Shown: piece by piece, positions 36,561 through 36,830 of the stretch
Layout of the letters: each line of letters starts with the position of its first letter
How positions within the stretch are numbered: the first letter of the stretch is position 1
Assembly (NCBI RefSeq): GCF_000027125.1
Contig: NC_017626.1
Direction: 5' to 3' (one strand)
Length of the DNA stretch: 64,000 bases
From: Escherichia coli 042
Lineage (GTDB): Bacteria > Pseudomonadota > Gammaproteobacteria > Enterobacterales > Enterobacteriaceae
Made by a program: the position numbers and the translations under genes
Notes under the pieces: generated by a model
The model's database searches: none
What the model was told of the DNA's origin: nothing
What the model saw: only the letters and a program-made list of their open reading frames with translations

Positions 36561-36830
36561 AATAATTCCACAATTGACTGCAACGTCACGTAATAGTTGC
36601 GCGGCGTGCTTGTGTTTCCTTAAAGTTAAAACTTTGATACAGATCTGATTATTTATGCAATATGCTGTCTGATTGCATAAATATACATTAGCTGAAGCGT
36701 GATGATATAAACAATTTGCGTCTTTTGGCGTCGGGTTTGTTTCTTAATATGTCAAAAGATTGGCTATCGACGAACAGGCGAGGTAACGCTATGTTAACGG
36801 TGTAGCTATCAGAATACGGAAGGCGCGAAG

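Follow-up and report, generated by a model that had tools for sequence, protein, structure and literature searches.

The spacer between the divergent genes dtpD and ybgI raises the question of what function is served by a long perfect inverted repeat lying within it. The spacer is 270 bp long and separates dtpD (35079-36560, minus strand) from ybgI (36831-37574, plus strand), gene identities that were checked against annotated E. coli records. All positions given here refer to the window, by which we mean the whole 64-kb stretch of E. coli DNA that was analysed, and are converted to NC_000913.3 coordinates by adding 705996. A recent gel shift with Cra aside, no regulator of dtpD is established, and little is understood of the ybgI-pxpBCA-nei operon as well. 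Judging from the sequence, we suggest with moderate confidence that the repeat makes up the interior of an operator with two boxes for the arginine repressor, ArgR, placed over the core of the dtpD promoter.

Position, extent and rarity of the repeat

A preliminary description of this DNA reported the repeat ATTTATGCAA-N12-TTGCATAAAT at 36651-36682, where it is indeed present. Its arms, given there as 10 bp long, are perfect for a further 1 nt at both ends, which makes 12-nt arms with 10 nt between them (Table 1). When mismatches are allowed, the arms grow to 16 nt (36646-36661 and 36672-36687) and pair at 14/16 positions. Perfect repeats whose arms measure 12 nt or more and stand no further than 20 nt apart number four in the window, compared with 0.03 expected from dinucleotide shuffles, and the probability of encountering one such repeat in a shuffled version of the 270-bp spacer is ~6e-4. 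The other perfect repeats of the window mostly resemble terminator hairpins, with loops of 4-5 nt and flanking runs of A and T, and the dtpD-ybgI repeat differs from them in this respect.

The 46-bp segment containing the repeat is 100% identical in 5240/5426 complete E. coli genomes. The full 270-bp spacer is matched over at least 80% of its length in 5420 of these genomes and gives some match in 5422, and it differs from that of K-12 MG1655 at two bases. In E. coli strain C012, an IS1 element is found in the spacer (at about 36686), directly beside the ARG Box R described below, and parts the dtpD promoter region from ybgI.

Table 1. Sites, boxes, promoters and transcription starts in the dtpD-ybgI spacer, in window coordinates
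Feature	Position	Strand	Sequence	Remarks
FNR-like site	36634-36647		TTGATACAGATCTG	8/10 core positions of TTGAT-N4-ATCAA; outside the repeat proper
ARG Box L	36644-36661		TCTGATTATTTATGCAAT	14/16 consensus positions; 18.0 bits
Left arm of perfect repeat	36650-36661		TATTTATGCAAT	Positions 7-18 of ARG Box L
Canonical partner position	36651-36668			3 bp from Box R; -2.1 bits in E. coli, not an ARG box
Distal ybgI start (reported)	36655	plus		RegulonDB, U00096.2 741874; exact base uncertain
Right arm of perfect repeat	36672-36683		ATTGCATAAATA	Positions 1-12 of ARG Box R
ARG Box R	36672-36689		ATTGCATAAATATACATT	14/16 consensus positions; 18.9 bits; best in window
dtpD transcription start	36673	minus		U00096.2 741892; 113-nt leader; Kim et al. 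2012 supplement
dtpD -10 hexamer	36680-36685	minus	TATATT	5/6 to consensus; -12 to -7 of mapped start
Cra-like site	36691-36704		GCTGAAGCGTGATG	-18 to -31 of dtpD; Cra consensus GCTGAANCGNTTCA
Proximal ybgI promoter (ybgIp2)	36767-36802	plus		-35 TCGACG, 36767-36772; -10 TATGTT, 36790-36795
Proximal ybgI start	36802	plus		Kim et al. 2012 supplement; 5' RACE agrees, promoter named 'ybgIp2'

The repeat lies where two promoters overlap

A scan for consensus promoters and terminators returned no sigma-70 site and did not place the repeat among its terminators; the promoters were therefore taken from published start sites. The 51-mers given by Kim et al. (2012) for the dtpD and proximal ybgI starts were both located in the window. 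To the distal ybgI start recorded by RegulonDB, the authors of a primer-extension experiment assigned a large product obtained with a primer complementary to ybgI mRNA (target 36845-36864), and it is the complementarity of this primer to ybgI that points to the plus strand. With respect to dtpD, the right arm takes in the last part of the -10 hexamer together with the discriminator, +1 and +2, whereas the left arm corresponds to +13 to +24 and the centre of the repeat falls at +7.5. As both the dtpD start and the distal ybgI start are inside the repeat, it occupies the place where two face-to-face promoters overlap.

This placement invites an explanation in which no dedicated regulator is involved and the symmetry is a by-product of the overlapping dtpD and distal ybgI core promoters, with -10, discriminator and start modules nearly alike on both strands. 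Besides the two starts, sigma-70 ChIP signals at 36640 and 36676 (the latter a ChIP-seq peak) are in keeping with such an arrangement, as is the near-identity of two 14-mers, GTATATTTATGCAA on the minus strand, which comprises the dtpD -10, discriminator and +1, and GATTATTTATGCAA on the plus strand. However, a start at ~36659-36660 would be expected of the plus-strand module, whereas 36655 is the reported position, and ATTATT or GATTAT makes a poor -10. Taken together with the pattern of conservation described below, this leads us to regard overlapping core promoters as a rather unlikely source of the symmetry.

The start sites also bear on the earlier proposal of a small stem-loop, which found no support. 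Because transcription starts within the arms (the right one for dtpD, the left one for distal ybgI), neither RNA holds both arms in full, and the dtpD RNA lacks nearly the whole right arm. The full 34-nt segment would fold at -10.4 kcal/mol (z-score -4.1), and a plus-strand start at 36655 leaves a 7-bp stem from +1, but the truncated plus-strand hairpin reaches only ~-5.6 kcal/mol with a z-score of +1.1 and so does not surpass shuffled sequence. A and U predominate in the stem, no U-run comes after it, and an Rfam search of 36400-37000 returned matches at chance level only (best E-values 1.4-8.8, far below gathering scores). Among orthologous spacers from other genera (see below), Kluyvera, Pseudocitrobacter and Superficieibacter show C-to-T and A-to-G changes that a plus-strand RNA could accommodate as G-U wobbles; against this, no pair has changed on both sides in the 16 spacers, paired cells amount to 77.6% versus 77.4% in shuffles, and six taxa have lost the left arm, in contrast to an invariant right arm. 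Neither mark of a stem-loop or terminator, that is, both arms in one transcript and compensatory change, was found at this locus, and a nucleic-acid hairpin, whether at the 5' terminus of the distal ybgI transcript or as a DNA cruciform, seems to us very improbable.

Both arms lie within high-scoring matches to the ARG box

Each arm belongs to an 18-bp match to the ARG consensus WNTGAATWWWWATTCANW, which has 16 specified positions; we refer to the two matches as Box L and Box R (Table 1). A 14/16 match is reached at only three positions of the 64-kb window. For scoring, a symmetric matrix was built from 20 ARG boxes of 10 E. coli operators (argECBH, argI, argF, argA, argG, argR, carAB, artJ, artP and argD) taken from the K-12 genome. 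Box R and Box L have the top two matrix scores in the window, and known boxes, when left out of the matrix, score between 4.9 and 21.7 bits. A score of at least 18 bits occurs at one position in 400 kb of unrelated loci, with 0.0013 expected per shuffled spacer. As a pair, Box L and Box R reach 36.9 bits, which equals the level of argI and argF and is by far the best in the window, where the next pair not reusing Box R scores 13.6 bits.

The half-sites that deviate from the consensus (TGCAT, ATGCA, ATACA and TGATT) are all found in natural ARG boxes, namely those of argG, argR, argD, artJ, artP, argECBH and argA; among the variant half-sites, TTGCATAAAA occurs in argG/argR, TATGCAAT in artJ/artP and AAAATACAC in argECBH/argA. 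The boxes at dtpD thus take the same form as those of the E. coli artJ, artPIQM, argG, argR, argD and argECBH operators, 18-bp imperfect palindromes of the type TGnAT-WWWW-ATnCA. Box L is similar to the boxes of artP (ACAGAATAATTATGCAAT) and artJ (AGTGAATTTATATGCAAT), and Box R to those of argG/argR (TTTGCATAAAAATTCA..) and argECBH (TATGAATAAAAATACACT). Their scores fall in the upper part of what known boxes reach, and, as is common for ArgR, the -10 hexamer and start site are overlapped.

On dtpD, Box R extends over -16 to +2 and Box L over +13 to +30; counted from the reported distal ybgI start, Box L occupies -11 to +7. Both boxes overlap promoter cores, Box R that of dtpD and Box L that of distal ybgI, in positions from which a bound repressor would exclude polymerase. 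According to Cho et al. (2015, NAR 43:3079), ArgR most often overlaps the polymerase site, as it does for 34 genes. The earlier suggestion that the geometry suits a dimeric transcription factor is supported in part, for the repeat is located on a promoter and both arms rate as boxes of high quality for a known repressor. What fits best, though, is hexameric ArgR with its two palindromic 18-bp boxes, and the repeat then consists of the facing portions of these boxes and not of dimer half-sites.

Two features distinguish the dtpD boxes from known E. coli ArgR operators. The first is their spacing, since canonical operators have two boxes 2-3 bp apart (Cho et al. 2015), whereas the two strong boxes at dtpD are separated by 10 bp; no 39-bp operator with a 2-3 bp gap is found here in E. 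coli. The second is the nature of the targets, a proton-coupled dipeptide permease and the divergent ybgI-pxpBCA-nei genes in place of arginine biosynthesis or ABC-transport functions. The distance from centre to centre is 28 bp, or ~2.7 helical turns, which places the two boxes on different faces of the DNA. In Bacillus subtilis, AhrC, which belongs to the ArgR family, has two ARG boxes ~11 bp apart at argC. The centre-to-centre distance there is close to the 28 bp at dtpD, although both the organism and the protein are other than E. coli and its ArgR.

Conservation across genera

The gene dtpD adjoins ybgI in part of the Enterobacteriaceae only, and 16 orthologous spacers, from 11 genera and one metagenome contig, were aligned. 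Their mean column identity is 46%. Invariant in 16/16 are ATATGC (36660-36665), TG (36674-36675) and ATAAATATACA (36677-36687), with C36676 kept in 15/16. The conserved block within Box R, 36674-36687, corresponds exactly to ARG positions 3-16, and the spacers differ at positions 1-2 and 17-18 of the box, for which the consensus gives N or W. Box R qualifies as an ARG box in all 16 (11.2-19.8 bits), with the consensus TGAAT present in Yokenella. Variation is seen in the outer left arm (71%) and in the middle of the gap (80%). Escherichia, Salmonella, Citrobacter, Intestinirhabdus, Superficieibacter, Kluyvera and Pseudocitrobacter all retain TG(C/T)AAT as the core of the left arm; Klebsiella, Scandinavium, RIT691, Yokenella and the JGI contig have lost it. 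Conservation of the repeat, by which the preliminary description proposed to judge it, is accordingly partial, with the right arm present in every spacer and the left arm confined to the Escherichia/Salmonella/Citrobacter group.

The position of the second box divides the taxa. In Escherichia, Salmonella, Citrobacter, Superficieibacter and Pseudocitrobacter it lies 28 bp upstream of Box R with a 10-bp gap and scores 8.6-18.0 bits; in at least five genera the 10-bp spacing shows neither insertion nor deletion. In RIT691, Scandinavium, the JGI contig, K. oxytoca and a second Klebsiella, it is found 21 bp upstream with a 3-bp gap, at 5.1-11.6 bits, scores like those of the weaker artJ, artP, argR and argD boxes. 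Kluyvera, Intestinirhabdus and Yokenella have no second box and carry Box R alone. The invariant ATATGC forms the right half of the canonical partner and persists even where that partner no longer scores. We also considered a 7-bp tandem duplication (TATGCAA/TATGCTG) as the origin of the 10-bp gap: a 7-bp deletion would give a canonical operator with a left box of 14.3 bits, but flank identity between the two taxon groups does not improve with the gap, at 0.44 against 0.48 without it.

In the same alignment the proximal ybgI promoter conserves its -35 (95%) and -10 (89%), with 61% identity in the spacer between the hexamers and 45% in the initial transcribed region. Conservation at dtpD, in contrast, runs from -14 to +14 in the absence of any conserved -35 element. 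Because the proximal ybgI promoter conserves its hexamers only, the 28-bp block at dtpD needs more than recognition by polymerase to account for it, which argues against overlapping core promoters as the whole explanation. Such promoters would also account neither for the scores of the two 18-mers, which are at the top of what ARG boxes reach, nor for the limits of the invariant block, which coincide with ARG positions 3 and 16.

Several of the same observations count against ArgR. Box R overlaps the -10 hexamer, so that part of its conservation is due to the promoter. In E. coli, most of the invariant ATATGC falls between the two boxes, and the two-box model leaves it unexplained. Finally, the gap is 10 bp with a score of -2.1 bits at the canonical position, and three genera (Kluyvera, Intestinirhabdus and Yokenella) have Box R by itself.

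CytR and other candidate binders

The symmetry of the repeat core, TGCAAT-N10-ATTGCA, could instead reflect an operator for CytR or another dimeric repressor. The pentamers TGCAA (36656-36660) and TTGCA (36673-36677) match those of CytR perfectly, in inverted orientation. They belong to the octamers TATGCAAT and ATTGCATA, each of which matches the CytR octamer GTTGCATT at 6/8 positions; CytR sites consist of two such repeats 0-3 or ~10-13 bp apart, and the 10 bp seen here falls within the 10-13 bp selected for, and tolerated by, CytR bound together with CRP. The core TG(C/T)AAT / (A/G/T)TTGCA is, moreover, shared by 7/7 genera of the Escherichia/Salmonella/Citrobacter group, in which the middle of the spacer is variable. 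Nevertheless, CytR requires CRP, and the spacer offers no credible adjacent CRP site: its best matches to TGTGA-N6-TCACA have three mismatches (36633-36648 and 36698-36713), and matches of this quality are at or below chance in the window (165 versus 220 expected). The repeat is centred on the start site, at +7.5 of dtpD, and not at -40 to -90 of a CRP-activated promoter, and dtpD is a dipeptide permease gene and not a nucleoside gene; neither flanking CRP sites nor an upstream location in a CRP-activated nucleoside promoter was found.

The motif itself is not rare, as TGCAA-N12-TTGCA with no more than one mismatch occurs three times in the window against 4.3 expected, and the main text of a comparative study of CytR does not name dtpD. 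The conserved flanks at dtpD also reach beyond any CytR octamer; CytR accounts neither for ATACA (36683-36687), which is invariant, nor for TCTGAT (36644-36649), which is conserved. We consider an operator of this kind improbable.

Other candidates were set aside. CRP as a binder in its own right is represented by the three-mismatch, chance-level sites alone. A predicted GalR site at 741888 labelled 'dtpD' is given in NC_000913.3 coordinates and lies inside the dtpD coding region, not in the spacer. A LexA assignment comes from a BPROM prediction on a random 'dtpD' clone whose sequence was not given, and no CTGT-N8-ACAG overlaps the repeat. Sigma-54 does not fit, as it needs GG-N10-GC and the repeat has TG/AG. 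Compared by eye with their consensus sequences, the repeat likewise does not fit sigma-E, NsrR, Fur, Lrp, PhoB, the marbox and the LysR-type T-N11-A.

Proposed control of dtpD and ybgI-pxpBCA-nei by ArgR

Support for an ArgR operator comes from the box matches, their rarity, their placement relative to mapped starts and their conservation. We propose that when arginine is plentiful, the hexameric ArgR-arginine complex would bind Box R and Box L, sterically excluding RNA polymerase from dtpD, which is how ArgR usually acts, and probably also blocking the distal promoter of ybgI-pxpBCA-nei. Both the binding of ArgR at dtpD and repression by that binding are predicted from sequence. The 10-bp gap might be handled by one hexamer on distorted DNA, by two hexamers, or by binding mainly to Box R. 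The more specific version, a non-canonical operator in which two full-strength boxes 10 bp apart are occupied by one assembly that shuts both dtpD and distal ybgI-pxpBCA-nei, is one that we put forward tentatively, as a possibility on which we would not rely.

In the literature searched, we found no meaningful link of ArgR with dtpD, ybgH or ybgI, and the main text of the ArgR ChIP-exo paper (Cho et al. 2015) does not name the dtpD-ybgI locus. If the locus is already contained in published ArgR ChIP tables, the boxes would provide the sequence explanation of a known peak; otherwise dtpD would be a new ArgR target. The physiological logic is plausible, since ArgR already governs amino-acid uptake systems and the paralogous transporter YjdL is reported to prefer dipeptides whose last residue is positively charged. 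An ArgR operator at this site would tie the dipeptide permease dtpD to arginine supply, and might link to it the recycling of 5-oxoproline to glutamate and endonuclease VIII as well.

The site is an element of a well-known kind, unusual only in its 10-bp spacing and in the difference in register between groups of genera. If functional, this spacing would put to the test the accepted rule that the boxes of ArgR lie 2-3 bp apart, and the sister genera that combine the same Box R with a canonical partner would amount to a natural experiment in how far the hexamer tolerates a 7-bp shift of register.

Other elements in and around the spacer

Additional sites flank the repeat. The Cra-like site includes a perfect left half, GCTGAAGCG (36691-36699, -18 to -26 of dtpD), and fits the published gel shift of Cra on the dtpD promoter and its repression of dtpD. 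The segment 36688-36706 is highly variable, even in a divergent E. coli representative. On the other side of the repeat, the FNR-like site contains GATC and improves to 9/10 in Intestinirhabdus and Superficieibacter. A weak FNR ChIP-chip peak is printed as 'dtpB/ybgI' in Table S7 of Myers et al. (2013), an entry that probably denotes the dtpD-ybgI spacer.

A direct repeat, TATGTCAAAAGATTGGCTATC / TATGTTAACGGTGTAGCTATC, with copies 42 bp apart (36748-36810), spans the proximal ybgI promoter, and GCTAT occurs three times. The Salmonella spacer is 58 bp longer than that of E. coli, and a 37-residue ORF called in it upstream of dtpD (Salmonella locus 1344-1457) is absent from other genera. Two mini-ORFs in the repeat region, MQYAV (from 36655) and MLSDCINIH (from 36662), were rejected as they are not conserved and are interrupted by stops in Kluyvera, Pseudocitrobacter and Klebsiella.

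A conserved GTGTTTCC block at 36612-36619 (minus strand, GGAAACAC) gives rise to the CA-rich stretch AAACACAAGCAC in the dtpD leader RNA, which seems to resemble targets of the small RNA GcvB. GcvB controls many peptide and amino-acid transporters.

Elsewhere in the window, two further ARG-like boxes were found at 8306-8323 (17.0 bits, near the end of pgm) and 16743-16760 (15.9 bits, inside kdpD); neither has a partner within 15 bp, and both are probably chance matches. Between the convergent genes phr and dtpD, the inverted repeat CCTGATAAAACGC / GCGTTTTATCAGG (35033-35063), perfect over 13 nt and with a loop of 5 nt, looks like a shared bidirectional terminator.
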